55,177 nucleotides of DNA from a virus, in the IMG/VR virus record IMGVR_UViG_3300043331_000267, positions 1-55,177 of that record; one strand, given 5' to 3'. Of this stretch, positions 198-30,300 are shown piece after piece (positions within the stretch are counted from its first letter, which is position 1; every line of letters starts with the position of its first letter). The notes under the pieces were generated by a model. It saw only the letters and a list, made by a program, of their open reading frames with translations, did no database searches and was not told where the DNA came from. Both the position numbers and the translations under genes were made by a program.

Positions 198-198
198 G

Positions 199-375: not shown

Positions 376-384
376 GCGTTAATC

Positions 385-2170: not shown

Positions 2171-2319
2171 CGGCATGGCTTGCCTTCAAGCACAAATGAA
2201 TCAGGAGATGACTCGATCTCATCTATCCGCATCGTAGCCTCTTGTTCGGTGGGGTACTCTGCGACCACAGATTCCTGACCATCCAATCCGCCGACGATTC
2301 TGATGATCTGATACGTCAT
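2149..2319 (-). CDS. Hypothetical 56-aa protein coupled to the tailspike (below the track cutoff)
   Basis: ATGA overlap with the stop of 2316..4334. Translates to MTYQIIRIVGG...CRYRLDIV. Overlaps the acyltransferase 3' end convergently by 22 nt. Confidence 0.35.
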   Translation of the reverse strand: MTYQIIRIVGGLDGQESVVAEYPTEQEATMRIDEIESSPDSFVLEGKPCRYRLDIV

Positions 2320-4334
2320 CGCAGATAGCCTCGTTCTCGCAAGTCGTTAATCAGCGTCCCGAGCACATCAGCGAGTTCGTCAGTCGTAGTCGCATTGGCA
2401 TCGTATGACCTGTCGGTACTGACATTGCTTGCTGTGTATGTCGGAGGCGTTCCGGAACCGGGATCGATAGCCCAGACGCCTGGTTTCTCTACGATATGCC
2501 AATAGCCAGCTTGTCGGCACTCAAGCACGAGGCGAGAGCCGCGCACAGATGACTTGATGCTCGTTCCAGCTGCGTACCCATCGGCCAGCGGCACGATCTT
2601 ATCGGCGCCGTTCGGAGCGATGCCCATTGTCTGCGCAGCCCAGACCTCGAAGGACAAGCGCCAACCAACACGAGCCGATGTTGCCTGAATCAACGTGATA
2701 GTGATTGCACCCGAAGCTCCATTGTTGGTGATGGTTCGTCCCAGATAGCGAGCATCAGAAATCGTGACGTTGCCCGTTTGATGCGAGAAAATCTCAGGGA
2801 CGCTGATAATGCGCGGAACGGCCGTTGCGTCAGCAGACCATGGATTCGTTCCTGCATACGCATACTTTGGGTTATGGATCTCTGTCGCCGCCCACGCACC
2901 AGAGAACCGAAATGGCGCCAAAGACGCAGCGTTCAGAAATCCGTCGTCATCTCGCACCATCGGATCGACGACGCGAATATTGCCAGGGGTTGAAGTATGC
3001 GAGCCTGAGTTGTGAAGGATGATTCCGCCATTGATCGTGCTCGTAGTGCCCTGCGCTTGGTTGGGATTGATAACTGTCGAGCGAATGAGTTCGACGAGAG
3101 GACCATTCACATCCCAGTCATACACGTGGATGCCAGCTTGCTGCTCATCCACCATGACCGCATCAACAACACGAATTCGGCCACGGCACGGGGTCGTCGA
3201 CGGAAGTCGATTGATGTCGATGCCGGGTCGTAACCGGCCTGACTGCGAGACTGTACCGTTGTCATTGGTGTACTGCTCAATGATCTCAATATCGGCGTAG
3301 TTTCCAGTCGCGTTCCACGCAGCAAGAAACACTTCAACGCCAGGACCATCATTGCCGACGCAGCGGCATCGGATCATCTTGATGTCTTCGAGAACGTCGG
3401 TAGTCGCGTTCGGTTCGATGTCATATCCAGCGCACGGGGCGGTCCCGTTCGTATTTTGGAACAGACAATCGACAGCTCGAAAGTGGCGAGCGTTTACAAC
3501 CGACAGCCCTTGCCTGCGGTTGTCATCGGCCACAACACCAATCAGCTTTATGCGAGTGGCGGGATCGCCGGCATCCCCGCCTACATAGTATCCGTCGCCA
3601 CCAGTGCTCGACGACTCAAGGCCCTCGATTGTGACGTTTTGTGCGCCATAGATACGCACTCCGTGCCGCTGCTCTCCGGAGGTGTAATCTGCGCGAACCA
3701 TCTGCACTTTCGCGCCCCACCCAACGATGTGGATGTTGTCGTTGGTGATGTTGACCAGTCGATCGTTCGCGCCCAGCGTCGAGACGGCCTTGATGACCGT
3801 TCCCGGCTCTAGGTATAGCAGTGTGTTCGCGGGCAGTGTAAACGGGCCAGTGCGATATGTGCCGCGCTTGATGAATATCGCCTGTCCCGCGATGGCACAC
3901 AGATTCGTGAATGCCGTGGTGTTGTCTGTTGAGTCGTCGCCATTCAGCCCATAGCGAAGCACCGCATCCGTCCATGGCCGCGTACTTCCCGCATAGTCCA
4001 CCGGCGTCACGCCCGCGGCGATCTCGGCGGCGGTGCGCGTGTAGGTTGCCGGTATCTGATCGTTGATCGGATCGACGGTGTATAAATCTACATCCGCACT
4101 GGTCCGAAGCGTCAGCTTGTGCCGTACCCCAGGATTCATGTAGATCGCCGGAAGGAAGCCGAGGAAGTCAGCCACAACCGGATTCGCATGCGGAATCGTC
4201 AGGTCGGCGTCCTGATAAACCGTCTGCAGCGTCGTCGTTCCCGTCTGGTAGAAATACGCCTTTGCACCCGGGACAGTCTGAAGGTTTCCGTTGTAGTTCA
4301 GCTGCCGAGGGAGCTTGAAAAGTTGATGTGACAT
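2316..4334 (-). CDS. Tailspike / receptor-binding protein 3 with pectate-lyase-like beta-helix (probable polysaccharide depolymerase)
   Basis: 672 aa. The N-terminal ~95 aa are shared with the two upstream RBPs (GAKAYFY..PHANPVVAD..KLTL). RYGLNGDDSTDNTTAFTN...IFIKRGTYRTG resembles the start of Pectate_lyase_3. Confidence 0.8.
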   Translation of the reverse strand: MSHQLFKLPRQLNYNGNLQTVPGAKAYFYQTGTTTLQTVYQDADLTIPHANPVVADFLGFLPAIYMNPGVRHKLTLRTSADVDLYTVDPINDQIPATYTRTAAEIAAGVTPVDYAGSTRPWTDAVLRYGLNGDDSTDNTTAFTNLCAIAGQAIFIKRGTYRTGPFTLPANTLLYLEPGTVIKAVSTLGANDRLVNITNDNIHIVGWGAKVQMVRADYTSGEQRHGVRIYGAQNVTIEGLESSSTGGDGYYVGGDAGDPATRIKLIGVVADDNRRQGLSVVNARHFRAVDCLFQNTNGTAPCAGYDIEPNATTDVLEDIKMIRCRCVGNDGPGVEVFLAAWNATGNYADIEIIEQYTNDNGTVSQSGRLRPGIDINRLPSTTPCRGRIRVVDAVMVDEQQAGIHVYDWDVNGPLVELIRSTVINPNQAQGTTSTINGGIILHNSGSHTSTPGNIRVVDPMVRDDDGFLNAASLAPFRFSGAWAATEIHNPKYAYAGTNPWSADATAVPRIISVPEIFSHQTGNVTISDARYLGRTITNNGASGAITITLIQATSARVGWRLSFEVWAAQTMGIAPNGADKIVPLADGYAAGTSIKSSVRGSRLVLECRQAGYWHIVEKPGVWAIDPGSGTPPTYTASNVSTDRSYDANATTTDELADVLGTLINDLRERGYLR

Positions 4335-6170
4335 CTAGATCACGCAGAGGCAAAGCTCGTCGAAGTCAATAACGTTTCCACCGCCTACGGCAGCGGCGTT
4401 TACCTGAGTTCGAATGGTGTTAGTGCCGGCTGGTGCAATTCCGATGATTGCCTTGTGAGCCCACGCGGTGTCCGTGCTCTCAATAGAGTCACTGCGATCT
4501 GATGCCGTGATCGCATTTCCGGCCTTGTCGAGGAATCGCAACTGGGGTGTCGCTACGGTCCCTGTTCCGGATGACACTCTCGCGGCATACGAGAAAACAA
4601 CGAGTCGTCCAACGGCGTGAGGGGCGTCAACATCCTGACGAAACACGATGTCGTCTGTGGCGTTTGGAGCCGTCAGTCGAAAACCATAACTTCCGTTCAA
4701 TAGAGCCGCAGCGCTCGCGACAGCTGTGCCAGTCGCGCCACCGCCGGCAACTTTCGTCCACCCGCTTTCGCTGTTGTACTCAGCGTCACCGTTCGTCAGC
4801 AAGTTCGCTGATTTTGCGAGTTGAAGATTGTTCGTCGGGCCATTCAGCGATGAGAGCGCATACGAGGCACAGCCGATCGCCGTTACACGGCCAGGACCAA
4901 CGGCGAAGTGTCTCAGGTTATAGGTTGCGTCATTCTGGAACAGCAGATAAGACCCGGACAGCGGAATGTGCGTTCCGTTGAACGTCAGCGATGAGTCGGC
5001 GCTCTCAAGCAAGAACGGCGCCATGGCGAAGTTCGCGCCAGAGTTGATAACGATCTGACCGCCCTGGACATTGCAATTGCTCGTGCCTGCAAGCCGAATC
5101 ATTCGGTAGCCCGTGTTGGCTTGCGCTTCGATATTGCACCCTGCGATGTCGATGCGGGCATCGGTGACGCCATAGATGGTTACAGACACTCCGAATGAGC
5201 AACCGTTAAACACGAAGTGGCCGGCATCCATGTAGAGATCAGCCGTGCCAATCACGAACCAGCAGTGATCGAACTGCATGACCTCTCCAGCGTTGCTGAT
5301 GCCAGCAGGAAACGACAGCACTCTCCCGCCGTCACGCGTGTACTCGAAGCAGCAATGATCGAACCGGGTACGCCAAGCGTTGTCCGTGAACGCGACCAAT
5401 GTATTGAACTTAAAGAATGTGCAGTTCTCAAACAGGATTTCACTGCTGTTGACATACGAGGCGCCAACACGGCCGACCGTGATCCCGGTGTGACCAGCGT
5501 CTAGATCCCCACGGAAGGCAATACCGCTGATCTTGTGCGTCCCGTTCCTTGGCGGTCCTGACGCGTCAAAGATGTGCGTTGAATACACCTGTAGTGTGCC
5601 GCCCGCAGACATGTCGAAAGTGACGCCAACCCCTTCCAACGAGGTAGTACGAATGTCGAGCAGCAGTGCCCCGTCGACCTTGTACGTCGTCTCTTCCCCG
5701 CACCAGATCCGTCCGCCCATGTTCAGAGCGTTTTGAATGATGCTTGTCGCGTTGACTGCGCCGGTCGGATCTGCTCCGTACCTTCGAAGATCGCCATATT
5801 CTCGGTAGTTGTTGACGACTGTCAGACCTGCAGCAGTTTCTGCGGCAAGCGTCGGGTATAGATATCCGCCAATGACTGTCTGCGACAGAATCACGTCGTT
5901 GACGGGATCGGCCGTGTACAGATCAACATCGGACGCCGTCTTCAGCGTGAGCTTGTAATTGCGTGAAGGGTCAAAGTAGATGACCGGGAGAACACCCGCC
6001 GAGTCGGCGACAACCGGGTTTGCATGCGGCGTGGTCCGAGCGGAATCCTGATACGTGTCGAGCGGCGTGGTCGTCCCACTCACGTAAAAGTACGCTTTCG
6101 CTCCCGACAGGAGCGTCATGTTCGAGCTGACACCTACCTGCTTAGGCAGTTGGAAGACTTGGTACGACAT
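4335..6170 (-). CDS. Tailspike / receptor-binding protein 2 (beta-helix, C-terminal jelly-roll-like domain)
   Basis: 611 aa with the same N-terminal anchor. YGADPTGAVNATSIIQNALN looks like a beta-helix start. The C-terminus (NGDAEYNSESGWTKV...) is CBM-like. Confidence 0.75.
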   Translation of the reverse strand: MSYQVFQLPKQVGVSSNMTLLSGAKAYFYVSGTTTPLDTYQDSARTTPHANPVVADSAGVLPVIYFDPSRNYKLTLKTASDVDLYTADPVNDVILSQTVIGGYLYPTLAAETAAGLTVVNNYREYGDLRRYGADPTGAVNATSIIQNALNMGGRIWCGEETTYKVDGALLLDIRTTSLEGVGVTFDMSAGGTLQVYSTHIFDASGPPRNGTHKISGIAFRGDLDAGHTGITVGRVGASYVNSSEILFENCTFFKFNTLVAFTDNAWRTRFDHCCFEYTRDGGRVLSFPAGISNAGEVMQFDHCWFVIGTADLYMDAGHFVFNGCSFGVSVTIYGVTDARIDIAGCNIEAQANTGYRMIRLAGTSNCNVQGGQIVINSGANFAMAPFLLESADSSLTFNGTHIPLSGSYLLFQNDATYNLRHFAVGPGRVTAIGCASYALSSLNGPTNNLQLAKSANLLTNGDAEYNSESGWTKVAGGGATGTAVASAAALLNGSYGFRLTAPNATDDIVFRQDVDAPHAVGRLVVFSYAARVSSGTGTVATPQLRFLDKAGNAITASDRSDSIESTDTAWAHKAIIGIAPAGTNTIRTQVNAAAVGGGNVIDFDELCLCVI

Positions 6171-7147
6171 TACGCGCTGATCCTGGCAATCGAAATCAGA
6201 CTTCCACTGAGCAAGCGCGTGATATCTGCATCAGAGGTCAGCTGAGCCCATTGAAGTTTTATAGTCATGGCGCCTGATGGGGTGAGAGTCGCATAGTCAA
6301 TGCGACGAATCAGCGCTTCTGTTACTGGTGCTGCGTAACCGATCAATGAGAGTGCGGTTCCTAAGCTGCTAATCGCTGCCGCACCAGCATTGATTTGCTC
6401 TAACCCGCAACCTCCAATCGCGTTTGCGCTTCCATTATCGAAAGAATAGTTAAATTTGAATCCGCCGGATCCGCCGGTAAGCCCAACAACGTTAAGCACA
6501 GTTTCAATTCGATAAGTACCGGCGACAGGAACAGATAGTGTTAGCTCTGGATCATCTGCCAAAGTTGTTGTGCTGCTGCGATCCGTATTTACTGTCTTAC
6601 GTACCGCAAGTGATCCGAGAGCTTCCAGGCTATTGACTTGTACTTGAGTCGCCAAAAGATTGATCAGGTCGACTGTTGATCCAGTTCGATCGATGATCGC
6701 TAGATCGGTTGCGACGCTTTCTGCATCGTTGAGCAGGGAGATGCGCATCTGCTCGGCGTTGACGCGGACGCGCCATTTCTTGTTGCCTGCCGAGGCATCC
6801 GTCTCTTCGAAGATCAACTCTGGTGCGGCCGACTTCAGCCTGAACGTTTGTCCAGTGTTTTGATTCGACGGGTAATCATCGATAGGATAGCCAGGCTGGG
6901 GCACGTCCGAACTGTCGGTGAGCAGCACGCGGTAGTTCGGGAGCGATGGGTCGAGGTAGATTTTTGAGAACACCCCCGCGCCATTGGCGACAACCGGATT
7001 CGCATGCGGCACGGTCAACGCCAGATCCTGATAGACGTTTTGCGGCGTGCTGGTGCCGGTCTGAGTAAAGGTCAACTTCGCGCCCGGTAGCGGCGTATTG
7101 AGCGCCGAGAGAGCAACGAATTGAGGCCCCGTGAATAGTTGCGGCAT
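6170..7147 (-). CDS. Tail fibre / receptor-binding protein 1
   Basis: 325 aa. The N-terminus (GAKLTFTQTGT..PHANPVVANGAG) is paralogous to the two tailspikes and the C-terminus is unrelated. Lies directly after the ejection proteins. Confidence 0.7.
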   Translation of the reverse strand: MPQLFTGPQFVALSALNTPLPGAKLTFTQTGTSTPQNVYQDLALTVPHANPVVANGAGVFSKIYLDPSLPNYRVLLTDSSDVPQPGYPIDDYPSNQNTGQTFRLKSAAPELIFEETDASAGNKKWRVRVNAEQMRISLLNDAESVATDLAIIDRTGSTVDLINLLATQVQVNSLEALGSLAVRKTVNTDRSSTTTLADDPELTLSVPVAGTYRIETVLNVVGLTGGSGGFKFNYSFDNGSANAIGGCGLEQINAGAAAISSLGTALSLIGYAAPVTEALIRRIDYATLTPSGAMTIKLQWAQLTSDADITRLLSGSLISIARISA

Positions 7148-11019: not shown

Positions 11020-12012
11020 TTACGGGCCTCCAGCAAGCGCGTTGTCGAGCGCGCCCCAAGCATCCGGCGCTTGGATGTTGTATCCGCGGCCACCGCGGCC
11101 ATCGAAGTATCCGCCGCGCCACATTCCATACAGCGATGCAAGATCATTCACACCGCCGGTAATCGCGTTGGTCTGGTTGATGATTCCAGAGGCGCGCGCA
11201 TTGCCCTGGCCGAGCAGCAGGTTGCTGACGTTGGTCCCCGTCGTCATCGCAGCGTTACCAGCCTGCGTTGTCGCGGCTTGCCCCATGCCCGCAAGCGCGA
11301 GCTGGCGATTGACGTAGTTCCCGAACTCGCTGGCCGCGAGCCCTTGGCCGTAGTCAGTAATCCCGCGCAGAGCGTTGCCCGAGTACAGACCGCCACGAGC
11401 AGCGGCACTTCCCTGGACGGCGTTCAAGCCTTCATTGAGGCGGAACGTATAGTCGGGCGACTTGTAGAATTCGGAGTAATCCGGACCAGCCAGTTGATTT
11501 CCCCCGCCAGATGCTTCGCGCGCGGCCGCCAATTCATTCATCCGGCCTTGTTCCCAATTTCCCCACAGCGCATTGATGTCCGCGCCCGTATCGTTGATGA
11601 ATCGACCGTTCGGGCCACCGGGCCGCAACGTGCCGATACGCTGGCCACCGTAGTGGACTTCGTACCAGCCGCCGCCAACGTCTTTCGTCGTCGTGCCCGG
11701 CGGTAGCTCGGTATCGCCGATCAGTACCGGCTCCTGTGACCGCATACCGCCGCGCAGGCCACCGTACAGCGGATATTCCTCGTTGGAATAGCCCGGTGCA
11801 GGCTCGTATCCGTAGATGCTACCGAGTGCATTCAGTGCCTGATTGCCGATCTGGCGCTGATTCGCAGTGAGGTTGAGCAGCGTATCGAACTGACGGCGCT
11901 GTTCACCTATCGCGGCATCACCGGCGCGGCCCTGAGCGCGAGCAGCATCTTTCGCGCCCTGGTTTGCCATGTATCCAGCGCCAACAGTTCCAACAAGTGT
12001 CGCGCCGGCCAC
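11020..12012 (-). CDS. Internal virion / ejection protein (330 aa, Gly/Asn/Ala-rich)
   Basis: Motif FYKSPDYTFRLNEGLNAVQGSAAARGGLYSGNALRG...YGQGLAASEF resembles podophage internal proteins (from recollection). Confidence 0.6.
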   Translation of the reverse strand: MAGATLVGTVGAGYMANQGAKDAARAQGRAGDAAIGEQRRQFDTLLNLTANQRQIGNQALNALGSIYGYEPAPGYSNEEYPLYGGLRGGMRSQEPVLIGDTELPPGTTTKDVGGGWYEVHYGGQRIGTLRPGGPNGRFINDTGADINALWGNWEQGRMNELAAAREASGGGNQLAGPDYSEFYKSPDYTFRLNEGLNAVQGSAAARGGLYSGNALRGITDYGQGLAASEFGNYVNRQLALAGMGQAATTQAGNAAMTTGTNVSNLLLGQGNARASGIINQTNAITGGVNDLASLYGMWRGGYFDGRGGRGYNIQAPDAWGALDNALAGGP

Positions 12013-12077: not shown

Positions 12078-12575
12078 CTAACCCAAATGGCATACGCGCC
12101 TCGCTTGATCGATCATCTCGGGGTCATTCGAAACCAGTTCCGCTTCCGCTTCTTCAACGGTCTTCGCTGTCGTCGCATGCACCGTGATCCATACGGTCTC
12201 CTCACGTGCATACAACACGCGCTTCGTCCCTGGTTTGGTCGTTAGAATGCAAGGCGCCTTGATGCGCTGGAAATCCTGGTCGGTCCACACATCGATTTCA
12301 CCAGTCAGGATGAACGCGAAGTGTTCCTTCAAATGAATCTTGCTCGTGAGCAAGCATCCTTTCTTGATCGTCACCTGCCGCGCATACAGGCCATCGGCGA
12401 AGCGATTGATGAGCGAGAAATCAGCCTGTGGAAGCTTCTTCAGCTGATCCTCGATCTGATACATCTGCCGCTGTGTAGGCAGGGTCTCACCCAGGCCCGA
12501 GATAACCGATGTGGCTTCCGGTCGGAACTCCGCTTGCAGCGGAAGGTTCTCGACGGTGAGCGAATACAACTGCAT
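12078..12575 (-). CDS. Cupin-like beta-barrel protein in the tail/ejection module
   Basis: 165 aa. GLYARQVTIKKGCLLTSKIHLKEHFAFILTGEIDVW...TKPGTKRVLYAREETVWITVH has a cupin-type strand pattern. Confidence 0.5.
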   Translation of the reverse strand: MQLYSLTVENLPLQAEFRPEATSVISGLGETLPTQRQMYQIEDQLKKLPQADFSLINRFADGLYARQVTIKKGCLLTSKIHLKEHFAFILTGEIDVWTDQDFQRIKAPCILTTKPGTKRVLYAREETVWITVHATTAKTVEEAEAELVSNDPEMIDQARRVCHLG

Positions 12576-12898
12576 CAGGCTGGCTCCACGATCATCCAGG
12601 CCACTTGTCTGGTGTCGGCTGCATTAGAACTTGTGATTACGAAACTCGTACCAGCCGTCCGCGCACTCACGGTCAATTCCCCGTGCGTACCGCTGGAGTT
12701 TTGGCCCGATAGAAAGATGCGGCTGTTCGCCTGCACTTTCGTGTTGCTCACCGTGACCGTGCCAGCGACGAGCGTTGCGACACCCATGTATCGATTCGCG
12801 CCGTCCTCGATCTTTAGGAACTCATGCACCAGATTGCGCAGATACCGCGTCCAGTCGCGAATATCGGTCGGTACGGCAACGAAGACGCGCAGACCCAC
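12575..12898 (-). CDS. Small beta-rich tail protein (107 aa)
   Basis: Coupled (1-nt overlaps) between the gp10-like and cupin-like genes. Function is unknown. Confidence 0.55.
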   Translation of the reverse strand: MGLRVFVAVPTDIRDWTRYLRNLVHEFLKIEDGANRYMGVATLVAGTVTVSNTKVQANSRIFLSGQNSSGTHGELTVSARTAGTSFVITSSNAADTRQVAWMIVEPA

Positions 12899-22367: not shown

Positions 22368-23804
22368 TTAGGCGAAGTCGCTCACGTTGCTGAAGTCGCC
22401 ATGAATGCGGTGAGCAACGGCCACATGCGCCTCATCGATCACACGGCCCATCATTCCACACATATCCACGTCGTCATCCTGTTTGGCTCCTGGAAACGCA
22501 AGCATCTGGTGCAGTATTCGATGACCGGTCTCGTTATCGGGCAGATGCACCTTACCCATGGACGCGCGCCCCTGGAGCGCCCGAGCACGAGCTGGCTTGT
22601 CTGTTATCGACGCCACCCACTCGACGCGAACATTGCAGTTACGCTCATCCATACGCTTTATCAGGAACGGCTCCACCGCTCGCCGGATCACACCAGCCTC
22701 GCCAAAGAACGCTTCCGGTGAGTGCGTCAGCATCAGATTGCAACACTCATCGATCCAGATATCCGGCGTGGTCTGACCGCCCCAGTAATCGAGCGCAAGA
22801 TACAAGTCGCCGTCCTGATCCCAGCCGTGCACGCCAAGCGAGGTGTAATCACCCGCGGCTGCGGTCACTGCAAAGTCAGACGTCATCCACTTGCTGAGAT
22901 CGCCGGTTAGTTTCTTCGGGTCGTACCAATTCGGCTCGAACCACTCGCGGCGAAAGTACGTTCCTTCCTCTGGCGCTGGATTCTGTTGGTACAAAGCGGA
23001 CCACTGCATCGGTGTTGAATTAGCCTTGATTCGCTCAAGCGCTGCACGGTCATACCGCTCAGGCCAAGGTGGATCATCCAGGTGTGCCGGGAGCGAAACG
23101 ATTTCCCATTGATCGCCACCGGCCTTCATGCGTTCAATCAGCCGGCCAGCAATATCGTCTTCGTGCATGCGGTGCTGGATCAGGATGATCGCGCCACCCG
23201 GTCGCACCCGGTTGTACAGTGTGCCCTGATACCAGTCCCAGACCCGATCACGGGACGACTTGCTCTGCGCGTCTTCCCACGTAGCGAACGGATCATCGAT
23301 CAACGCCAACTCGCCGCCTCGGCCCATCAGCGCGCCGCCCATACCGACCGCGTAGTAGCCGCCGCCGTGCTCCGTGTTCCAGCGGCCTTTTGCTTGCGAA
23401 TCTTCGGCCAGTCGTGTCTCTGGAAACAGCTTCTGGTATTCCATAGAGGCGATGCAGTTGCGCACATCGCGGCCGAACTCTTCCGCCAGCTGTGCCGTCG
23501 CACTCGCTGATATCACTTCACGCTGCGGGTTCTTGCCCAGCAGGTAGGCCGGATACCGTCTCGATGCCGCCGTGCTCTTACCGTGCTGGGGCGGACACAA
23601 CAGCATGAGCCGGTCGATCTCTCGGCGATCAACCCTATCCAGCTGCTCGCATATGACCCGGTGAATCTTGCCAGCCTGCCATCCGAGCGTCGTGTACTCA
23701 GTGAACGCTTGAAGGTTCCGGCGTGCTATCCGTCGCCTCAACAGTTCCTGTGCTGCGTCCTGTGGCGATAGCTGCAAGTTCTTCGTCGCTAAGTTCGCTG
23801 ACAT
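22368..23804 (-). CDS. terL: Terminase large subunit
   Basis: Walker-A-like CPPQHGKS and a nuclease half with acidic motifs. The track start is TTG 23834, ATG 23804 is chosen here, and either start overlaps terS by more than 100 nt. Confidence 0.85.
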   Translation of the reverse strand: MSANLATKNLQLSPQDAAQELLRRRIARRNLQAFTEYTTLGWQAGKIHRVICEQLDRVDRREIDRLMLLCPPQHGKSTAASRRYPAYLLGKNPQREVISASATAQLAEEFGRDVRNCIASMEYQKLFPETRLAEDSQAKGRWNTEHGGGYYAVGMGGALMGRGGELALIDDPFATWEDAQSKSSRDRVWDWYQGTLYNRVRPGGAIILIQHRMHEDDIAGRLIERMKAGGDQWEIVSLPAHLDDPPWPERYDRAALERIKANSTPMQWSALYQQNPAPEEGTYFRREWFEPNWYDPKKLTGDLSKWMTSDFAVTAAAGDYTSLGVHGWDQDGDLYLALDYWGGQTTPDIWIDECCNLMLTHSPEAFFGEAGVIRRAVEPFLIKRMDERNCNVRVEWVASITDKPARARALQGRASMGKVHLPDNETGHRILHQMLAFPGAKQDDDVDMCGMMGRVIDEAHVAVAHRIHGDFSNVSDFA

Positions 23805-24222
23805 GCCGATGCTTGATGGACCCTGAGTGCTCAACTGCCTTCACGTCCCGCCACTGATCCGGGCGCCTATTCTTCAGCCAGAAGATGCCGGCTGTCGTGT
23901 CTGGCGGGTAATGCTCAACGTACGGCACAACGACAGGCTCGCCGTTGTTCTGGAGGATCTTCACGGCATCGTGCGAGTACCCCAGCGCGCGCTGGTACAG
24001 AGATTTCTCAACACGATCGTCCGCCGCAGCCTTGCCAAGCTTTAGCGCCATGAAAAATTCTGGGTATTCGGCTGACCAATTCCTAAGCGTCGTTTCATGA
24101 ACGCCAAAGAATTCAGCCACTTCCCTATCAGTACACCCCTGCTCGAAGAGCTTCCTGGCTTTTTCAGGGTATTCGGGGTCGTACTTGGTTGGTCTACCGG
24201 CTTTGTTGGGCGCCTCAGCCAT
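23698..24222 (-). CDS. terS: Terminase small subunit (HTH type)
   Basis: 174 aa. GRPTKYDPEYPEKARKL...GCTDREVAEFFGVHETTLRNW is a typical terS N-terminal HTH. Lies directly upstream of terL. Confidence 0.8.
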   Translation of the reverse strand: MAEAPNKAGRPTKYDPEYPEKARKLFEQGCTDREVAEFFGVHETTLRNWSAEYPEFFMALKLGKAAADDRVEKSLYQRALGYSHDAVKILQNNGEPVVVPYVEHYPPDTTAGIFWLKNRRPDQWRDVKAVEHSGSIKHRHVSELSDEELAAIATGRSTGTVEATDSTPEPSSVH

Positions 24223-24496
24223 TTATCCCAACTCCGTGAAGTCTCGTGTCTTCCACCCATTCCATCCGGAAGCCGTACCAGCCATGCCATCGAAGCACTA
24301 ACTGGCACCACACCTCACGATCCTTGTCGATGACATAGTGATAGCCAAAAGACGGCAGCCTGATGACTAGCAGAATCGCCTCGTAGCACTGACGCCGGGT
24401 TGCTTCCGGCAGGATGGCTGGATACTCAATGATCCCAATCCATAGCCACGACTTCGGCAGCGCGTTGCCGGCTTGGATACGCGGCAGCAGTTTCAA
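24215..24496 (-). CDS. Hypothetical protein (93 aa), late leader block
   Basis: Overlap-coupled to terS (8 nt) and to the upstream gene (4 nt). Confidence 0.55.
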   Translation of the reverse strand: MKLLPRIQAGNALPKSWLWIGIIEYPAILPEATRRQCYEAILLVIRLPSFGYHYVIDKDREVWCQLVLRWHGWYGFRMEWVEDTRLHGVGING

Positions 24497-24678
24497 TTCG
24501 GCACCTCAACCCGCTGCTTGCTCACGATGCTCTGCCGGATGTCGACAAGCTGCTGCTTGGCATGCAGTTCGCGGATCAACTCGGACATGCTGATGCCCAG
24601 CGTGCCGCACATCTCCTCAAGCATCGCGTAGCTTTGGTCGATGACGTAGGCGTAGCGGTCGTCTTGCTTGGCGGTCAT
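24493..24678 (-). CDS. Hypothetical protein (61 aa), late leader block
   Basis: ATG 24678 sits in an ATGA overlap. The Arg-rich extension back to 24777 in the track ORF is rejected. Confidence 0.5.
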   Translation of the reverse strand: MTAKQDDRYAYVIDQSYAMLEEMCGTLGISMSELIRELHAKQQLVDIRQSIVSKQRVEVPN

Positions 24679-25037
24679 TGGATGCCCTGGATATTCTCGA
24701 TGTCGAACTCGATCGTCTTGCGGATCGGCCCGTCTGCGTCGGCGGCCTCGGCCACGAACTGACGGCGCTCGACACACATCCCGTTGCGAATGGCATTCTG
24801 GGAACTCGAGATAACGACGTTGACCGATGTGGCCGGCGTGAGGCTGGTCCAGTCCACGATAGCCGTGCCCTGGCTCAAATCGTCCAGGCGCCAGCGCATC
24901 GAGGTTGGGATCGTGGCGGCCAAGTCAGCGCTCAACGGGCGCAGCGTGATGCGCAAGGCCGATCCCTCGACGATCCGCGGTATCACGGCCTCGCCTACTG
25001 CGGGACCGAGCAACTGGACATCCAAACGCCCGAGCAT
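24675..25037 (-). CDS. Beta-rich protein (120 aa), late leader block
   Basis: Coupled to its neighbours. Sandwich-like sequence (MRWRLDDLSQGTAIVDWTSL...IEFDIENI). Confidence 0.6.
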   Translation of the reverse strand: MLGRLDVQLLGPAVGEAVIPRIVEGSALRITLRPLSADLAATIPTSMRWRLDDLSQGTAIVDWTSLTPATSVNVVISSSQNAIRNGMCVERRQFVAEAADADGPIRKTIEFDIENIQGIQ

Positions 25038-25297
25038 CAGCGCAGCAGCACGATGCTGGTGGCCGTGGTGCCGGTGCTCAGCACCTTGTCCACGCAGATG
25101 GAAATCATGGTGCCAGCCTGCACACCAACGAACGTTGGCGTGCTCTCATCGCCGGCCATCCGTACCGCGAGATTGCCCGCGCCGCCGACCCATACTGCCC
25201 GGCCGGGCGGGTCAAACACTGTCGTATCCGAAGCCGTCACACTGATGCTACCCGCCGCTGGACTGACTTCTCGACTGACCTTGGGGTTTCCGCTCAT
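25037..25297 (-). CDS. Small beta-rich protein (86 aa), late leader block
   Basis: Contains RAVWVGGAGNLAVRMAGDESTPTFVGVQAGTMISICVDKVLSTGTTATSIVLL. Coupled to its neighbours. Confidence 0.6.
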   Translation of the reverse strand: MSGNPKVSREVSPAAGSISVTASDTTVFDPPGRAVWVGGAGNLAVRMAGDESTPTFVGVQAGTMISICVDKVLSTGTTATSIVLLR

Positions 25298-25728
25298 AGT
25301 CCGAGTCCTAGTCCAACTGAGATTTTGTTCATGCCATATACCGCGTGAGGCTCTGACTGAGTTGTGATCGAGAACGTATCCGACACACCGCCGATCGTGA
25401 CTTCGACATCCACTGCGGTGAGGTACGATCCAGAGGACGTTCCTCGAGCTCGTACCGTATCACCGTTACTGACTGTGCCCTCGGTGCTGACGAAAGTACC
25501 CGAACCGTTGATGTCGTACGTGCCGCCCGTGATGGTGATGGCTGCTGCCGCATCGATGTCGGTGACCGTAATGGGGGCCGAGGTGTAGACCGTCGACAGT
25601 GCAGCGCCGCTGATGTCCGTGAACGAGAACGCATCGGGCGTGGTGTCGCTCGCTGCGGCCTGTGACCATATGGCGGTATTCCATATGGCTTCGTTCCAAA
25701 TCTCGCCCCAGATGGCGCCGATGGCCAT
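25294..25728 (-). CDS. Ig-like-domain protein with Trp-repeat N-terminus (144 aa)
   Basis: Contains AIWGEIWNEAIWNTAIW, then PDAFSFTDISGAALSTVYTSAPITVTDID...TIGGVSDTFSITT. Confidence 0.6.
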   Translation of the reverse strand: MAIGAIWGEIWNEAIWNTAIWSQAAASDTTPDAFSFTDISGAALSTVYTSAPITVTDIDAAAAITITGGTYDINGSGTFVSTEGTVSNGDTVRARGTSSGSYLTAVDVEVTIGGVSDTFSITTQSEPHAVYGMNKISVGLGLGL

Positions 25729-25731
25729 GGC

Positions 25732-26622
25732 TTACACCGAGAATTCTGTGCCGGTCTGTCCATCGCCGGTGACCGCCACGGTGTTGATCTGCTCAATGTT
25801 GGCGTCAATCGGGTCGGCAGCAGCAGCAGCAAGCACGGCGGTGGCAATCTCAGTCGCGGCATCTGCTGCCAGCTCTGACGCCCCAATGGCGTTGGCTGCG
25901 ATGGCCGCTGCATCAATGGCGCCCGCAGCGAACGTCGCCGAGGTGATCGCACCTGTTGCAATCTTCGCGGCCGTGATCCCGTTGTCTGCCAGCTGAGCCG
26001 TGACCGGTACGCTCGTCGAGCCGCCAGCGGGAACGACCGTCACCAGGTCCGTCGCGGCAATCGTGAAGATCGGCGCGGCCTCGAGCGTGACCGTTTTTGT
26101 CGATCCGGTGTAGTCGCTGGCAAAGGCAATGCCCTTCTGTGTGGCCGTGCTGACATCCGTGAAAATGAATGCTTGGCCGTTATAGGCATTGTCGTCGGCG
26201 CTGCCTGTAGTCAAGGTAAAACTGGTTTGCGTATCCAGTGTCGCAATTGTCGTGTCTGCCAGATAGGTGGCACGCGCGACTGGCTTCAGTGCAACGTTGG
26301 CCGCACTTCTGCCAATAGTGAAGTTCTCAATGACGTAGCCGACGGCGCTATTACCGTCCACCGTACCCGTGGTGATCACCAGAGAAACGTCTGTCCCATC
26401 TGCATATCCGTTGCCCGTCGTAGCCACCACGCGTACGTTATGCAGTCCGGTCACGCCATCGAAATCGACGCTCAGTGTGATGCCGGCCGTGATCTGCGTC
26501 GTGGAGTTCCCAACGTATGCAGAGACGACAGGCGTCCCCGCCAGCGTTGCTGGCGCGCCAGTGTCTGGCTCTGTCGTTGTGAACTTGACATCGAAGGTTT
26601 CGCCTATCGTGATATCTCTCAT
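25732..26622 (-). CDS. Fibre-like protein (296 aa)
   Basis: Thr/Ala/Gly-rich. The C-terminal repeats (AKIATGAITSATFAAGAIDAAAIAANAIGASELAADA) are typical of phage fibres. Confidence 0.6.
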   Translation of the reverse strand: MRDITIGETFDVKFTTTEPDTGAPATLAGTPVVSAYVGNSTTQITAGITLSVDFDGVTGLHNVRVVATTGNGYADGTDVSLVITTGTVDGNSAVGYVIENFTIGRSAANVALKPVARATYLADTTIATLDTQTSFTLTTGSADDNAYNGQAFIFTDVSTATQKGIAFASDYTGSTKTVTLEAAPIFTIAATDLVTVVPAGGSTSVPVTAQLADNGITAAKIATGAITSATFAAGAIDAAAIAANAIGASELAADAATEIATAVLAAAAADPIDANIEQINTVAVTGDGQTGTEFSV

Positions 26623-27305
26623 AGCCTTCGCACCAATAGGTTACCGCCAACAAGCTTTCCACCAACTAGTGGACCTCTCCCTGTAGCCGAACCGCCTGCC
26701 GAATCCACAACCTCAAGCGCGGCTATCCCCCAAGCCGCGGAACCCGACAGAGTCACATCAGCCGTCGTGTCGTTGCTGTCACGAAAGATGGTGTTGTCTT
26801 CGAAGTCGAACAACCCCGTACGCTGTGCGACTTCAGTGAAGTCTGTGCCTGCCGTCAGAGCGACAGCGTCCTGAGCAACGCAGTACCCCCAGGTTCCATT
26901 GGCCGCATCAGCAAACGCACCTAACGTAGCTAACGCGGTGGTGCCTGTGCCGCTTCCTGTAGCCGTGTTCGCATTTGTCGGCGTGCTGCTGATCGTTCCG
27001 GTGATGTTGTCCACCACCCAGGCCAGAAATGTTCCGTCATCGTACGTCAGGGTAATGGCGGCCGCAGATGGCGATCCATATCCGACGAACACCGAGATGT
27101 AATGATCAGTTGCATAACTGAAAGCATTGATCTTGGTTGTCCAGGTCAGGCCCAAACCAGACACAGCCATCGGTGCGCCATTGAAATGTACAACCGCAAC
27201 GATGATTGCCGAGTTCGCTCCGGGCGAGACCGAAGCGGTATTTACCGTTGTTCCACTGCCAGCGGACTCAATCCCCGCGGTCAGGCGCGTACAGCTCTTA
27301 GCCAT
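26619..27305 (-). CDS. Beta-rich protein (228 aa), unknown function
   Basis: Contains SVSPGANSAIIVAVVHFNGAPMAVSGLGLTWTT and a Gly-rich C-terminal tail. ATGA-coupled. Confidence 0.6.
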   Translation of the reverse strand: MAKSCTRLTAGIESAGSGTTVNTASVSPGANSAIIVAVVHFNGAPMAVSGLGLTWTTKINAFSYATDHYISVFVGYGSPSAAAITLTYDDGTFLAWVVDNITGTISSTPTNANTATGSGTGTTALATLGAFADAANGTWGYCVAQDAVALTAGTDFTEVAQRTGLFDFEDNTIFRDSNDTTADVTLSGSAAWGIAALEVVDSAGGSATGRGPLVGGKLVGGNLLVRRL

Positions 27306-28310
27306 TCAGGTCACAAACCCGGTGGGAGGTCCCATCCACGCACGGCCGACCGTGGGCTGCACATTAAACCCCATCGTGAATTTTCGGCCAGCCTTGGTCC
27401 AAAGGCTCGCTGAGCCGCTGTTCGCGCCGTTGTAGTAGCCGCCGCCGAACGTATCGATGTCGGCGATGTACAGGCCATCGACGGGATAGGCCGCATCCCA
27501 GGTAATCGAACAACCTCGCTCGACATACGTCCCATTACGCCGATGCAGGCGATAGCCGACGAAGCCGTCTGGCTCATCTACCGTGCTCATCATCTGCAAC
27601 CGGATCTCCATGCACAGATATTCGTCTGCATCAATGATGGGATTTCCCGCAGTATCGGTACCGGCGCTCGCCGCCACATACAGTGGCTGCGCCATGATGC
27701 AGTGAGTGCCGGGATCTGTGTCATCGCCTCCTGATCCGTTCATACGATCGATGTAGTCCGGCGCTGGAACCATGTTCGTCGATGAGAACATCCGCAGCGT
27801 GCCAATCGCAGGGGCGAAAACAATCGAATCCGCCGCACCGAGCGCCGCATCCTGATTGCCGTGCGCTATGAAGATCATGGGGCGGTAGTTCAACTCCGCC
27901 GATGGACTGAGCGCATTGGCGCAGCGAAAGATGAAGAACTTCGGATAGTTCGTCGCTTCCGCGCAAAAGAGATCTGAAACCTTGAGCTCGATGCGAAAGT
28001 TTAGCTGTCGAACCGCCTTTGTCCCGTTCTTCCAGAACGGCAGACCGCCAAATCCGCTTCCCTGTTCTCCCGACGTTGGCGGAAACATCGTCGCCACCGG
28101 CGCAGTCCCGCTCCACCATGCCTCATCGGCGAACGTGATGTTCGCACCGCCGTTGGTGCCCCAATTCGGGATCGTGCTGTTAACGTCCAGTGAAATGATC
28201 TGGGCATCGTCAGGGTCATAGTTGGCGTAGTCGCTAACAACTAAGCCATCGTTATCAGCACCGCCGTCAATACCGGCGACCACTGATGAGCGCGTAAGAA
28301 GGAAGCTCAT
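27306..28310 (-). CDS. Jelly-roll-like protein (334 aa), possible polysaccharide-acting enzyme
   Basis: No signal peptide. Gly/Asp/Asn-rich. The fold call is a guess from the strand pattern only. Confidence 0.55.
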   Translation of the reverse strand: MSFLLTRSSVVAGIDGGADNDGLVVSDYANYDPDDAQIISLDVNSTIPNWGTNGGANITFADEAWWSGTAPVATMFPPTSGEQGSGFGGLPFWKNGTKAVRQLNFRIELKVSDLFCAEATNYPKFFIFRCANALSPSAELNYRPMIFIAHGNQDAALGAADSIVFAPAIGTLRMFSSTNMVPAPDYIDRMNGSGGDDTDPGTHCIMAQPLYVAASAGTDTAGNPIIDADEYLCMEIRLQMMSTVDEPDGFVGYRLHRRNGTYVERGCSITWDAAYPVDGLYIADIDTFGGGYYNGANSGSASLWTKAGRKFTMGFNVQPTVGRAWMGPPTGFVT

Positions 28311-28535
28311 TCACGCGCGCCGCGGCCAGCGCTTGCTGTACGGCTGCACTCCGTTGAGCAAATACCAAAGCCCGTCAGGTGACGAGCCGCCAAACTTGTG
28401 CATCTCACACACGCGATCGGCCGACTGTAGACCGCGCACGATCATCTCGATGACCTGCTCGCGATCCATCGAATCAAGTATGGCAAAACGTGCCGACTGG
28501 TTAGCAGTGAGTAACTTGCCGTGGCCAGCGATCAC
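28311..28535 (-). CDS. Hypothetical protein (74 aa)
   Basis: ATGA-coupled to the upstream secreted protein gene. Confidence 0.55.
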   Translation of the reverse strand: MIAGHGKLLTANQSARFAILDSMDREQVIEMIVRGLQSADRVCEMHKFGGSSPDGLWYLLNGVQPYSKRWPRRA

Positions 28536-29296
28536 AAAATGACCTTCGAGCCTACATTCGAATTCGCGCTCTCAGTGCCGCCAGAGGTGTAGGCACGAAC
28601 CGCAAAGAAGTACGTGCCCGGCGAGAGATTACTGATCGTGTAACTTGACGCGCCTGGACTTGAGACCTGAACCGTCAAGATCAACTCTGTAGCTGATGCG
28701 CCATATGAGATCCGATAGCCGGCAAGATTTGTGAGCGCCGAGCCATCGGTGTTTTGTGTCGGCGGCGTCCATGACAGCGTTGCCGTTCCAGTGGCTGGCG
28801 GCGAATCTGTGTTTCGGAGCTCGCAGCGCTTGGCCACACCGACAAGCGGATCGCTGCCAAACGTCGCAATCCGGCATGGCACCGATCCGTTGACAGCCGT
28901 CAGGTCGCGCTCGACCCATGACGTATTCAGCCCAAACCTCACCCGGCGTGTGCCGGTGAACGAGCAAGTCTGATACTCGGCGGCGCAAAACTTCCATGCC
29001 GTAGTTGGCGGCGGAGGTGGGGGCGGCGGCGATGCGCTGTAAGTGACCGTCACGTACCGGTTCGGGTACCGAAGCTGATAGCGCGTAGTCGTCGACCGGC
29101 GCTCGGCATCCGCCTCGATACAAGCGAGCATCGCTGCCTCAGACGAGTTCGAGCACACCAGCGTCGTGAAGCCTGATCCGCGATACGCACGCCAGGTGCC
29201 AGTCGTCGGCTCCATGGTTCCCACGGTCGTCGCCGCGCCAGCAACCAGCGCGCACAGGCCAACCGCCACGACAGCGGCAGTCAGAGATAGGCGCAT
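28532..29296 (-). CDS. Secreted protein: signal peptide, Pro8 linker, 4-Cys domain, C-terminal fibronectin-III domain
   Basis: Signal peptide MRLSLTAAVVAVGLCALVAGAA, then PPPPPPPP. LSWTPPTQNTDGSALTNLAGYRISYG...GTYFFAVRAYTSGGTES is FN3-like. It is the first gene of the late operon, with SD GGAG. Confidence 0.7.
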   Translation of the reverse strand: MRLSLTAAVVAVGLCALVAGAATTVGTMEPTTGTWRAYRGSGFTTLVCSNSSEAAMLACIEADAERRSTTTRYQLRYPNRYVTVTYSASPPPPPPPPTTAWKFCAAEYQTCSFTGTRRVRFGLNTSWVERDLTAVNGSVPCRIATFGSDPLVGVAKRCELRNTDSPPATGTATLSWTPPTQNTDGSALTNLAGYRISYGASATELILTVQVSSPGASSYTISNLSPGTYFFAVRAYTSGGTESANSNVGSKVIL

Positions 29297-29380
29297 CGAC
29301 GCTCCAGGTTAGATGGCCCCGAACGCACCCCGGGCACCTAAGTGTGCGAGTGAGCGTCGTGCCGGGTGGTTGGGGGCCAG

Positions 29381-29410
29381 AGACAAGAAACCCCGCTCGG
29401 GGCGGGGCTT
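29381..29410 (-). terminator. Intrinsic terminator about 20-45 nt downstream of the late promoter (tR'-like)
   Basis: On the minus strand: CCCCGC-cccga-GCGGGG followed by TTTCTTGTCT. Confidence 0.65.
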
Positions 29411-29436: not shown

Positions 29437-29465
29437 TTTATATTAATTCCCCCGTCGCTTGTCAA
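29437..29465 (-). promoter_or_regulatory. Late promoter (PR'-like), near-consensus sigma70
   Basis: On the minus strand: TTGACA (29465-29460), an exact 17-nt spacer, then TATAAA (29442-29437). The -35 overlaps the Q-like gene stop. Confidence 0.65.
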
Positions 29466-29986
29466 ATCTCAAGCACCTTCCCAAGCTTGGCTCGAAGCCG
29501 TGCCTCTTCTCGAAAGTTAACAAGCATCCGACCAAGTGTTTTCCGGGCCCGGCGCAACCGCTCATCCATAGCCTCGGGCTTGATCCCGAGAACCGCCGCC
29601 TTTTCCGTCCTAGTGAATTCGCGGGCGTACACCGCACCCATGGCGTAGTTGACGGCAATCGCCTGAAACTGTGGCTCGGGCAACACGTTAACCGCTTTGT
29701 TCACGGCCAGCAGTGTCGGCGACACGTACCAGCATGATTCGGACAGGATCCGATGCCCGCCATAGTAGGGATTCTGTTTCCCCTGAGCTGTCAGCTGTGA
29801 AACCTGGAACCAATCGCGCGGCTCGTAGAGCTCCACCCGGCCGACTGTCATGGACTGCTGCGGGAACCCGCCCGACAGTCCAACGCGCCATCGGGCACGA
29901 CCCCAATACTCCAGCAGCGAGTTCAGATCACGCCAATGGAGCGACGGCAATTCTTCAGTCGTTTCTTCGGCCATGACTGCACTCAC
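29462..29986 (-). CDS. Q-like late antiterminator (Phage_antitermQ type)
   Basis: 174 aa. LLEYWGRARW resembles the LERWGAWA opening of the prophage Q family. C-terminal HTH-like LGIKPEAMDERLRRARKTLGRML. Sits immediately upstream of the promoter-terminator pair. Confidence 0.6.
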   Translation of the reverse strand: MSAVMAEETTEELPSLHWRDLNSLLEYWGRARWRVGLSGGFPQQSMTVGRVELYEPRDWFQVSQLTAQGKQNPYYGGHRILSESCWYVSPTLLAVNKAVNVLPEPQFQAIAVNYAMGAVYAREFTRTEKAAVLGIKPEAMDERLRRARKTLGRMLVNFREEARLRAKLGKVLEI

Positions 29987-30300
29987 GATTGAATCCTCAT
30001 CGCCTGGCTGAATCCAAGGGCGTCCAGCGCCTGCTCGGTGCTGGTGATATACGGAACGCTGTGGCGCGAGCAGAACTCGGCCTGCGCCTTCTGACGCTTG
30101 TCTAGCCGCGGATCGTTGCGCTTGTTCGCTGGCCGCTTCACCTCAAGCAGCATCCAGCTGTTCATTGGCCAACCTGGAGCACGCACGAGCAGGTCTACCG
30201 GGCGCCCGATCGGCTCAACATCGAAGTGCAGCGCTCGCAACTCATCGACGATCTTCTGCGTCGGAGCGTCTGGCTTGTCGGAGCGGCGCTTGAAGCTCAT
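29983..30300 (-). CDS. PD-(D/E)xK nuclease (VRR-NUC / resolvase-like)
   Basis: ATG 30300 in an ATGA overlap, 105 aa. GRPVDLLV...WMLLEVKRP gives the D...E-x-K motif. Confidence 0.55.
   Translation of the reverse strand: MSFKRRSDKPDAPTQKIVDELRALHFDVEPIGRPVDLLVRAPGWPMNSWMLLEVKRPANKRNDPRLDKRQKAQAEFCSRHSVPYITSTEQALDALGFSQAMRIQS

Follow-up and report, generated by a model that had tools for sequence, protein, structure and literature searches.

What is the role of the ten consecutive genes that stand between the late promoter and the terminase gene terS of a P22-like temperate phage? The question is raised by IMG/VR virus record IMGVR_UViG_3300043331_000267, the whole 55,177 nucleotides (nt) of which were analysed and are referred to here as the window. 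The ten genes, designated P1 to P10 in their order from the promoter, occupy positions 24215 to 29296. An earlier note, made from the sequence alone, had regarded them as one accessory module, possibly an additional capsid or tail appendage set or an envelope-acting system. The block was compared with about 100 metagenomic loci (numbered with the prefix L), and the analysis indicated, with a confidence only a little above even, that it is a recombination-prone array of accessory late genes in which a capsid-vertex adhesin system is combined with an exported host-mimic protein.

The capsid-vertex part of this reading starts from P7. The product matched the NCBIfam family NF048002.1 (spike base protein, RCAP_Rcc01079 family) over residues 12-83 of 86, scoring 64.6 bits (cutoff 28; E 7.4e-18), and a PDB sequence search pointed to Rcc01079, the base of the head spike of the gene transfer agent RcGTA. 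A profile of 70 homologues aligned over its full length with PDB entry 6TB9_E3 (positions 5-81 versus 6-80 of 84, E 6.8e-16) and also matched 8CJZ_h, which is annotated 'Spike Base Protein' (E 5.7e-10). The family has 1971 cluster representatives, nearly all of 80-115 amino acids (aa), and is labelled 'tail fiber protein' in PHROGs (phrog_12296). In the cultured Flavobacterium phage immuto, a P7 homologue directly follows the major capsid gene. Judged by these matches, P7 is a bona fide member of the spike base family, which would place it at the capsid vertex.

The head spike of RcGTA consists of a base-protein pentamer on the capsid penton and one fibre chain, whose residues 2-10 (IALGLGLGL) adopt the shape of a five-point star that places one aliphatic side chain into the pocket of each base subunit (PMC7296036); the head fibre is lectin-like and binds the capsule (PMC10218006). 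The P6 gene lies directly upstream of P7 and overlaps it by 4 nt. Its product has IW repeats at residues 2-21 and an immunoglobulin (Ig)-like domain at residues ~26-134, as the earlier note had described, and it terminates in a star peptide, ISVGLGLGL. This peptide has aliphatic residues at five of five positions and small residues at four of four spacers. When a star C-terminus was defined as five alternating aliphatic residues with at least three small spacers, it was unique among the 5871 distinct C-termini of open reading frames (ORFs) in the fetched loci. A C-terminus of the form [LI]G[LI]G[LT] was found in all four loci in which P7 follows a P6-like gene (ISVGLGLGL in the window, NRLGLGT in L016, TRLGIGT in L017 and LNIHLGIGL in L019) versus none of the four in which it does not (RMGGMMVFG in L158, GIRNYW in L159, RNRRLLH in L160 and SLNWWSH in L172).

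Star-like peptides were also found on the other side of the base gene. A survey of 80 IMG/VR loci with P7 homologues yielded 50 non-redundant downstream genes, 14 of which start with a star-like peptide (at least four of five positions; background 11%, p = 8e-4) and four of which match all five positions (background 1.3%, p = 0.004). Examples are MFVGIGMNL, MISLGISIPM, MLIGLNIKL, GIGIGLGIGVG and, in immuto, MYIGLGISL. The downstream gene of the window, P8, starts with MLGRLDVQLLGP, in which MLGRLDVQL matches four of the five star positions with bulky spacers and is only a partial match, though in the canonical downstream position. The P8 peptide, MLGR[LIM]D..[LI]GP, is present in five of five homologues that follow P7 and in none of the three without P7 (L006, L009 and L015), which directly precede terminase genes; P7-P8 pairs occur in L016-L019. 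A PDB sequence search with P8 gave no match. Both neighbours of P7 carry a P7-linked terminal peptide on the side facing the P7 gene. The earlier suggestion of an additional capsid appendage is supported for P7 by family membership, while P6 and P8 are its likely partners.

Further terminal peptides connect P6 with P5 and P5 with P4. P4 is rich in Ala, Thr and Gly and apparently beta-rich. Its C-terminal tail, GPLVGGKLVGGNLLVRRL, consists of three LVGG-type repeats, and a tail of the form GRGRL[VI]GGKL[VI]GGNL.. closes the gene that precedes a P5-like gene in 10 or more loci (the window, L158-L161, L172, L162/163, L014, L015 and L164), with variant P4-type tails in L170 and L171. The tails of the window and L016 are identical at 17 of 18 residues and at 39 of 54 nt (72%), and the DNA around the junction is ~75% identical. 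Because 17 of 18 residues are kept at 72% nucleotide identity, the tail peptide itself is under purifying selection, and its explanation as a recent recombination scar was dropped on the same grounds.

P5 consists of a conserved N-terminal Ig-like domain (residues 1-110), a second beta domain (residues 121-200), the Ala/Ile-rich repeats that the earlier note had called fibre-like, which are present in its C-terminal part, and a C-terminal helix (residues 238-268). An AlphaFold2 (AF2) model, with a predicted local distance difference test score (pLDDT) of 85.6, showed two Ig-like sandwiches followed by the C-terminal helix. The N-terminal stretch (the first 110-130 residues) recurs at 57-92% identity in more than 60 proteins of 370-820 aa, the distal parts of which are unrelated. 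P5-like genes were located upstream of terS or terL in L014 (T7-like portal), L015 (P22-like) and L016. Single-sequence PDB searches with P4 and P5 returned nothing usable.

The C-terminal ends of the P5-like proteins fell into three types, each with its own kind of following gene. After type A ends (..EQINTVA.TGDG..GTEFSV or ..GAGTSG..WR.A), the next product starts with four to five aromatic repeats of period ~5 in seven of eight loci, as in MAIGAIWGEIWNEAIWNTAIW, VAIGAFHEDAFDADAFSDVAFLF and LAAFSDGAFSQSAFGPAAFDF. Proteins with the YGSFAGK motif come after type B ends (..GDTF[KS][IV][VL]), and proteins of 68-69 aa with two FW.GGLA-type repeats after type C ends. Taken together, the connector patterns suggest a chain in which the P4 tail would meet the P5 N-domain, the P5 tip the P6 N-terminus, and the P6 tail P7. 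Small proteins encoded after fibre-like genes elsewhere (L165, L168, L014 at 11388-11618 and L009 at 4628-5278) contain two tandem short motifs, such as RRSHVxFWxGGLA, GYRGLLAxWxGGA, YGSFAGK and [YF][IV]SLFGR, and may be further repeat-peptide connectors.

P3 has a short N-terminal peptide, MSFLLTRSS, a Gly-rich linker and a concanavalin A (ConA)-like lectin/glucanase jelly roll. The jelly roll noted earlier was borne out by an AF2 model from a 44-sequence alignment (pLDDT 89.4, predicted TM-score 0.89) and by Foldseek, which returned, with 5gmt and 6kcw among the matches, PL14 alginate lyase, Aly36B, PL7 and PL36 lyases and legume lectins (probability 1.0, E ~1e-5, TM 0.25-0.45). The nearest BFVD matches were uncharacterised phage proteins. 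According to the model, P3 has a ConA-like lectin/glucanase fold that may be that of a lectin or of a lyase, the two being indistinguishable from it. All 46 homologues of P3 are metagenomic; no relative turned up when GTDB was scanned with the P3 profile, and the family appears to be confined to phage contigs. Some relatives, which lack a signal peptide, are fused to an N-terminal FN3 domain, to another beta-rich N-terminal region with no Pfam identity or, in L013, to three P6-type Ig domains. The proteins in the P3 and P4 slots of L016 have bodies different from those of the window, while an N-terminal peptide (MSFFFIRS) and the C-terminal tail are kept. In the SU10-like phage locus L004 (4127-9489), the P3 analogue and a neighbouring 548-aa protein share the N-terminal motif KIG.P.PG..L.AE.G.Y...G, and the P4 analogue ends in six GxYxLxGxD-type repeats, which suggests another docking scheme.

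The comparison across loci did not support the view of the block as one ten-gene module. Homologues of P3 were found in phages of several head and packaging types, including lambda-like L007 (GpA terminase, portal_2), SU10-like L004 and P22-like L006, as well as in L003, L009 and L013. What these loci have in common with the block is a P1 analogue, a small gene and P3, often with a P4-type gene after P3 (in L003, L004 and L007); P5-P10 are not part of the recurring set. Only the close relatives L016 and L017 keep the order P4 tail, P5, P6, P7, P8, P9, P10 and terS. Three independently mobile cassettes were observed, namely P1-P4, P5-P8, and P9-P10 with terS, and a single co-inherited ten-gene module was dropped as a candidate, since the cassettes occur separately in phages with different heads. 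When cultured phages were searched, with the whole block by megablast and with the joined protein sequences by tblastn, only Ig/FN3 fragments and a P7 homologue were returned, and Pfam and PHROGs searches with neighbouring proteins in L003, L004, L015 and L016 gave almost no matches. In L016 (5549-7547), terL is, by eye, apparently split into parts of 248 and 238 aa by a 180-aa ORF with an HNH-like C-terminus; this insertion would be of the homing-endonuclease type.

P1 is the only product of the block with a hydrophobic N-terminal segment (19-residue Kyte-Doolittle mean 2.26 versus below 1.7 in the other nine), in agreement with the earlier statement that P2-P10 lack signal peptides. Its parts are a predicted signal peptide, an N-domain, a linker of eight prolines, a 4-Cys domain and a C-terminal FN3 domain (PF00041, 35.5 bits against a cutoff of 25). 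The N-terminus is composed of MR, an 18-residue hydrophobic stretch and, by rule, an AGA|A signal-peptidase-type site; the four cysteines lie between residues 104 and 159. A lipoprotein was considered and dropped, because the residue before Cys15 is Leu and so there is no lipobox. Export is further supported by five analogues (L003, L006, L007, L009 and L013), in all of which the signal peptide MRxxLTAxVVxVGLCLxVAG...AxA and the C-terminal FN3 are kept around a variable Cys-rich middle, either a 4-Cys domain or TSP1-type repeats. A single-sequence PDB search with P1 returned nothing usable. Streptococcus phage phiST1 encodes a 'collagen triple helix repeat protein', part of which shares 42% identity with the 4-Cys domain (window 28811-28999); this domain has no Pfam model and may be an undescribed small disulfide-rich binding domain.

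A GTDB scan identified 58 loci with the P1-type FN3 domain, the best matches being 60-77% identical and the distant ones lower. Most named matches were in Steroidobacter/Steroidobacteraceae, where the gene is usually present as a pair of neighbouring paralogues and phage genes are absent from the vicinity. In Steroidobacter agaridevorans, secreted proteins with He_PIG Ig repeats carry the domain at their extreme C-terminus. On the strength of this similarity to their secreted proteins, Steroidobacteraceae are the predicted host family, and the FN3 domain of P1 is likely a copy of the C-terminal FN3 of host-type secreted Ig-repeat proteins. The S. agaridevorans locus (L101, 8924-12932) and 57 other genome loci encode paralogous secreted He_PIG-repeat proteins that share the highly conserved C-terminal FN3, and in L101 the genes adjoin an HD-GYP response regulator and M16 peptidases.

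Candidates for the late promoter and terminator proposed earlier at about 29.4 kb were found upstream of P1 as a TTGACA-17-TATAAA element followed by a GC hairpin with a T tract. About 25 nt separate the promoter from the hairpin and about 80 nt the hairpin from P1, whose start codon is preceded by GGAG. The consensus promoter scan missed the promoter because the last base of its -10 hexamer is A. The stop codon of the upstream gene, which encodes a putative 170-aa late regulator, overlaps TTGACA. A promoter-like element, a hairpin with a T run, a conserved Shine-Dalgarno region and a P1 analogue follow one another in the same order in L013 and L007, which are otherwise different phages. The layout of promoter and then terminator fits Q-type antitermination; the regulator, which the earlier note had taken for Q, is not a recognisable Q homologue, and searches of Pfam, PHROGs and PDB gave no match. 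It is 62% identical to a 162-aa protein of L013, a homologue with faint Sigma70_r4_2 matches on record.

The analysis established the family membership of P7, folds for P3 and P5, identities among motifs and patterns of co-occurrence; from these we infer the physical contacts, the capsid location and the sugar binding of a vertex adhesin as follows. The array stands behind the promoter-then-terminator unit at the head of the late transcript. P7 would form a pentameric base on capsid pentons, built like the RcGTA head spike, and the C-terminal ISVGLGLGL of a single Ig-like P6 chain would plug into the five hydrophobic pockets of this base; the N-terminal peptide of P8 also tracks P7. Outward from the base, the N-terminal aromatic repeats of P6 would hold the C-terminal end of P5, and the N-domain of P5 would hold the LVGG repeats of P4. 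Sugar binding would be the task of the distal parts, namely P4, the Ig-like domains and P3 with its ConA-like fold of a lectin or lyase, which would give a reversible first contact with the capsule, exopolysaccharide (EPS) or lipopolysaccharide of the host. Because each contact would be a short terminal peptide encoded beside the gene of its partner, the cassettes could be swapped by recombination at gene boundaries. P1 would be exported by Sec late in infection and would probably localise wherever its FN3 domain takes host proteins.

A more general proposal is offered tentatively, as a 'terminal-peptide docking code'. According to this proposal, fibre chains would dock on symmetric oligomers through tandem hydrophobic repeats (the star on P7, three LVGG repeats on P5, and four to five IW/AF repeats on the P5 tip), gene order would be assembly order, and recombination at gene boundaries would give the vertex adhesin a new tip without redesign of an interface, while the same late unit would export a mimic of a host FN3 protein.

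Several observations weigh against a vertex adhesin built from the block. The star peptide is at the C-terminus of P6, an upstream product, whereas in RcGTA and most family neighbours it is N-terminal in the downstream product, and P6 and P8 would compete for a single site on the pentamer. Homologues of P1-P4, P5 and P8 are also present in loci where the P7 profile found no P7 within 10 kb; they can therefore do without the spike base and may be attached at another site, if they are attached at all. The co-occurrence counts come from related loci and are not independent events, and the conserved peptides at gene boundaries could partly be recombination junctions. The structural matches of P3 are at fold level only (TM 0.25-0.45), and Foldseek with the P5 model gave only generic two-Ig (Fab-like) matches and no specific relative. 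Finally, the model leaves the first gene unexplained, because an exported P1 cannot join a particle assembled in the cytoplasm.

It is conceivable, but in our judgement unlikely, that only P6-P8 are capsid-borne and that P3, P4 and P5 are tail side fibres or extra receptor-binding proteins, which would use their conserved terminal peptides to bind the tail or the three tailspikes encoded downstream, in the manner of branched tailspike systems. The presence of P3-P4 and P5 without P7 in phages with lambda-like, SU10-like, T7-like and P22-like packaging or head genes would agree with such an arrangement, as would the weak match of the P5 model to a tail-tip chain of phage Chi and the situation in L004, where the P3 analogue that shares its N-terminal motif with the 548-aa neighbour adjoins a 515-aa protein matching a PHROG 'baseplate protein' family. 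However, the C-terminus of P5 co-varies with the N-terminus of P6, which is itself tied to P7, the genes adjoin head and packaging genes far from the tail module, and P3-P5 have no sequence similarity to annotated tail proteins of cultured phages.

The absence of signal peptides from P3-P5, and from the FN3/Ig fusions to P3, argues against a second alternative, somewhat less probable than the tail-fibre arrangement, in which P1-P5 are non-structural products in a moron slot like that of stx, with P1 periplasmic and P3 and P4 acting as soluble lectins or lyases that free the progeny from capsule, biofilm or debris. P1 is indeed exported, Cys-rich and host-like, alginate and ulvan lyases are among the nearest folds to P3, the promoter and terminator travel as a unit with P1, P2 and P3 across phage lineages, and the block apart from P7 has no homologue among annotated structural proteins; yet no catalytic residues could be assigned, and P3 and P5 are laid out like virion fibres, with a conserved terminal peptide or domain and a variable body. 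Least probable, in our estimation, is the masking role suggested in the earlier note, taken for P1 alone: the exported FN3 protein would mask receptors or coat debris or neighbouring cells, which would limit superinfection or loss of progeny. Such a role would follow the logic of T5 Llp, an early lipoprotein that binds FhuA. P1, as an envelope-targeted phage protein, could likewise block a surface site; its lateness is deduced from position and its export from the signal peptide, and its FN3 domain is shared with several secreted He_PIG proteins per Steroidobacteraceae genome, so that P1 could compete for the same surface site. Unlike Llp, P1 is late and has no lipobox.

The vertex adhesin proposed for the window resembles the RcGTA head spike (base Rcc01079/GhsA, fibre Rcc01080/GhsB; PDB 6TB9) in three respects: P7 is a full-length homologue of the base, a neighbouring product has a nine-residue peptide of five alternating aliphatics with small spacers, and the parts that would be attached have the Ig-like or lectin-like character to be expected of proteins that bind capsule or EPS. 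It differs in that the phage is a P22-like temperate podophage and not a gene transfer agent, that the upstream product carries the best star peptide, at its C-terminus, and P8 a second P7-linked peptide, and that the fibre is apparently extended by P5 and P4 through other repeat peptides.

T4 Hoc and T5 pb10 are accessory capsid decorations with Ig-like or FN3 domains, which bind hexamer centres directly. They are comparable to the block in having non-essential-looking Ig-like/FN3 modules on putative virion-surface proteins encoded beside head genes, whereas the anchor here would be a separate pentameric vertex base, with no sequence relation to these proteins. The branched tailspikes of CBA120 and G7C are tail-borne and chained through folded N-terminal adaptor domains. 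The block would share with them several receptor-binding proteins chained by short conserved terminal modules that allow cassette exchange, but its putative connectors are tandem peptides of 2- to 5-residue period, and at least one anchor would be a capsid protein.

The position of P1 has a precedent in the late-operon morons of lambdoid phages, in which stxAB stands between PR'/tR' and the lysis genes. With Shiga toxin genes located just downstream of PR', an exported first late product is not as unusual as the earlier note had considered. The cargo here is likewise placed directly after a late promoter and terminator, and its first product has a signal peptide and would be released only at lysis; the block differs in having no toxin similarity, no recognisable Q and the lysis genes at the other end of the operon.

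Head spikes have been structurally detailed mainly from one gene transfer agent, and here the base gene is found in a P22-like temperate phage. The spike-base family has about 2000 cluster representatives in metagenomes, yet phage annotation calls it a tail fibre protein. The window suggests how attached adhesins might be exchanged, by short terminal peptides that track partner genes. If this is correct, it would provide a simple rule, based on sequence, by which capsid-borne receptor-binding proteins could be recognised in uncultured phages together with their partners, and a handle for engineering host adhesion with the tail untouched. The P1 family, together with the conserved promoter-terminator unit, points to an exported host mimic that several unrelated phage lineages produce as their first late-phase protein.

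The positions of the genes and elements are given in Table 1.

Table 1. Genes, protein parts and regulatory elements of the ten-gene block and of the associated late functions in the window
Feature	Position	Strand	Description
P1	28532-29296	(-)	254 aa
P1 signal peptide	aa 1-21
P1 N-domain			between signal peptide and Pro8 linker
P1 Pro8 linker
P1 4-Cys domain	aa ~100-162
P1 FN3 domain	aa 171-245 (nt 28562-28786)		PF00041
P2	28311-28535	(-)	74 aa, GTG start
P3	27306-28310	(-)	334 aa
P4	26619-27305	(-)	228 aa
P4 C-terminal tail	26622-26675		three LVGG-type repeats
P5	25732-26622	(-)	296 aa
P6	25294-25728	(-)	144 aa
P6 C-terminal star peptide	25297-25323		ISVGLGLGL
P7	25037-25297	(-)	86 aa
P8	24675-25037	(-)	120 aa
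P8 N-terminal peptide	25002-25037
P9	24493-24678	(-)	61 aa
P10	24215-24496	(-)	93 aa, TTG start, 8-nt overlap with terS
terS	23698-24222		directly after P10
Late promoter candidate, sigma-70 type	29437..29465	(-)	TTGACA 29465-29460, 17-nt spacer, TATAAA 29442-29437; read from sequence
Intrinsic-terminator-like GC hairpin	29378..29410	(-)	AAGCCCCGCCCCGAGCGGGGTTT plus T-rich tail; hairpin and T tract at 29410-29388; 9 pairs, 6 GC
Putative late regulator	29462..29974	(-)	170 aa; C-terminus (...MDERLRRARKTLGRML) resembles sigma region 4
GH19 endolysin-like gene	54507-55049	(-)
Small membrane-protein ORFs	3-1036	(-)	single membrane segment

The ORF listing reproduced exactly the ten minus-strand genes and their sizes, and the same ten genes were called independently in JGI 3300036858 and Logan assembly records of the same contig, which show a P22-type portal and coat downstream of the block. 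The genes are considered real because conserved homologues exist elsewhere, P4-P10 in L016/L017 and P1-P4 in other loci. From P1 to P10, the junctions computed from the ORF list with a junction script are -4, 0, 0, -4, +3, -4, -1, -4 and -4 nt, and P10 overlaps terS by a further -8 nt junction, so that the earlier chain of overlaps and abutments is confirmed within -8 to +3 nt. The overlaps and the absence of a Shine-Dalgarno motif before most internal starts fit the translational coupling that had been assumed, but do not prove it. The description of the products as beta proteins rich in Ala, Thr, Gly and Ser does not apply to P2, P9 and P10.

P2 is small, basic and not beta-rich; it shares the motif HKFGGxSPDxLWxLLNG with its L013 analogue, and family searches (Pfam, NCBIfam and PADLOC) gave no match. 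P9 reached 20.1 bits with RHH_1 (E 6e-4), just under the cutoff of 20.5, and is by this match a possible ribbon-helix-helix DNA-binding protein. P10 is 52-54% identical in L016/L017, where it is also directly before terS. Searches with P10 of Pfam, PHROGs, NCBIfam, PADLOC and PDB gave no match, and an IMG/VR scan returned only spurious 14-residue matches. P9, P10 and terS are kept together in L016 and L017, and by this conservation P9 and P10 are genes that travel with terS. A toxin-antitoxin or defence pair was considered for P9-P10 and dropped, given the RHH_1 score below cutoff, the lack of a match for P10 and the lack of any PADLOC match in the block. A concatenated query of P2, P4, P7, P8, P9 and P10 against a set of 5.8 billion proteins returned only three P4-like matches, and homologues of P2, P8, P9 and P10 are known from the fetched loci only.

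Searches of P1-P10 in Pfam, PHROGs and NCBIfam detected no muralytic domain and no small membrane protein, the only membrane segment being the P1 signal peptide. The earlier view is supported in that the genes are accessory, stand first in the late operon and include no lysis function. A hidden lysis cassette in the block, or P1 as a signal-arrest-release (SAR) endolysin, was considered and dropped because no muralytic domain is present and a GH19 endolysin is encoded elsewhere. The lysis genes are at the far end of the late operon, as had been stated, when a circular map is assumed. Since the GH19 gene and the membrane ORFs are located at opposite ends of the window on the same strand, the genome looks complete and circularly permuted, with the lysis cassette split. 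Marks of a temperate phage in the window are an integrase, ERF/YqaJ recombination genes, two methylases and an Acyl_transf_3 gene. The last (~1100-2170, plus strand, within ORF 398-2170, E 7e-24) is located between the last tailspike and the small membrane-protein ORFs, and its product resembles the lysogenic-conversion type of acetylase that acts on O-antigen or EPS.

In the early region, a 105-aa protein (29983-30300, minus strand) is 90% identical to the product of a gene in L006 (7847-8146), and the genes flanking it are unrelated or much more diverged, which marks a sharp mosaic boundary. The tail module ends with three consecutive large genes of 672, 611 and 325 aa (2316-7147, minus strand), the receptor-binding proteins of the earlier note, of which the 672-aa product resembles, by eye, a beta-helix tailspike. 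Also in the tail region, a 107-aa protein (12575-12898, minus strand) with a K1-lyase_C match on record has the alternating hydrophobic N-terminus MGLRVFVAV.

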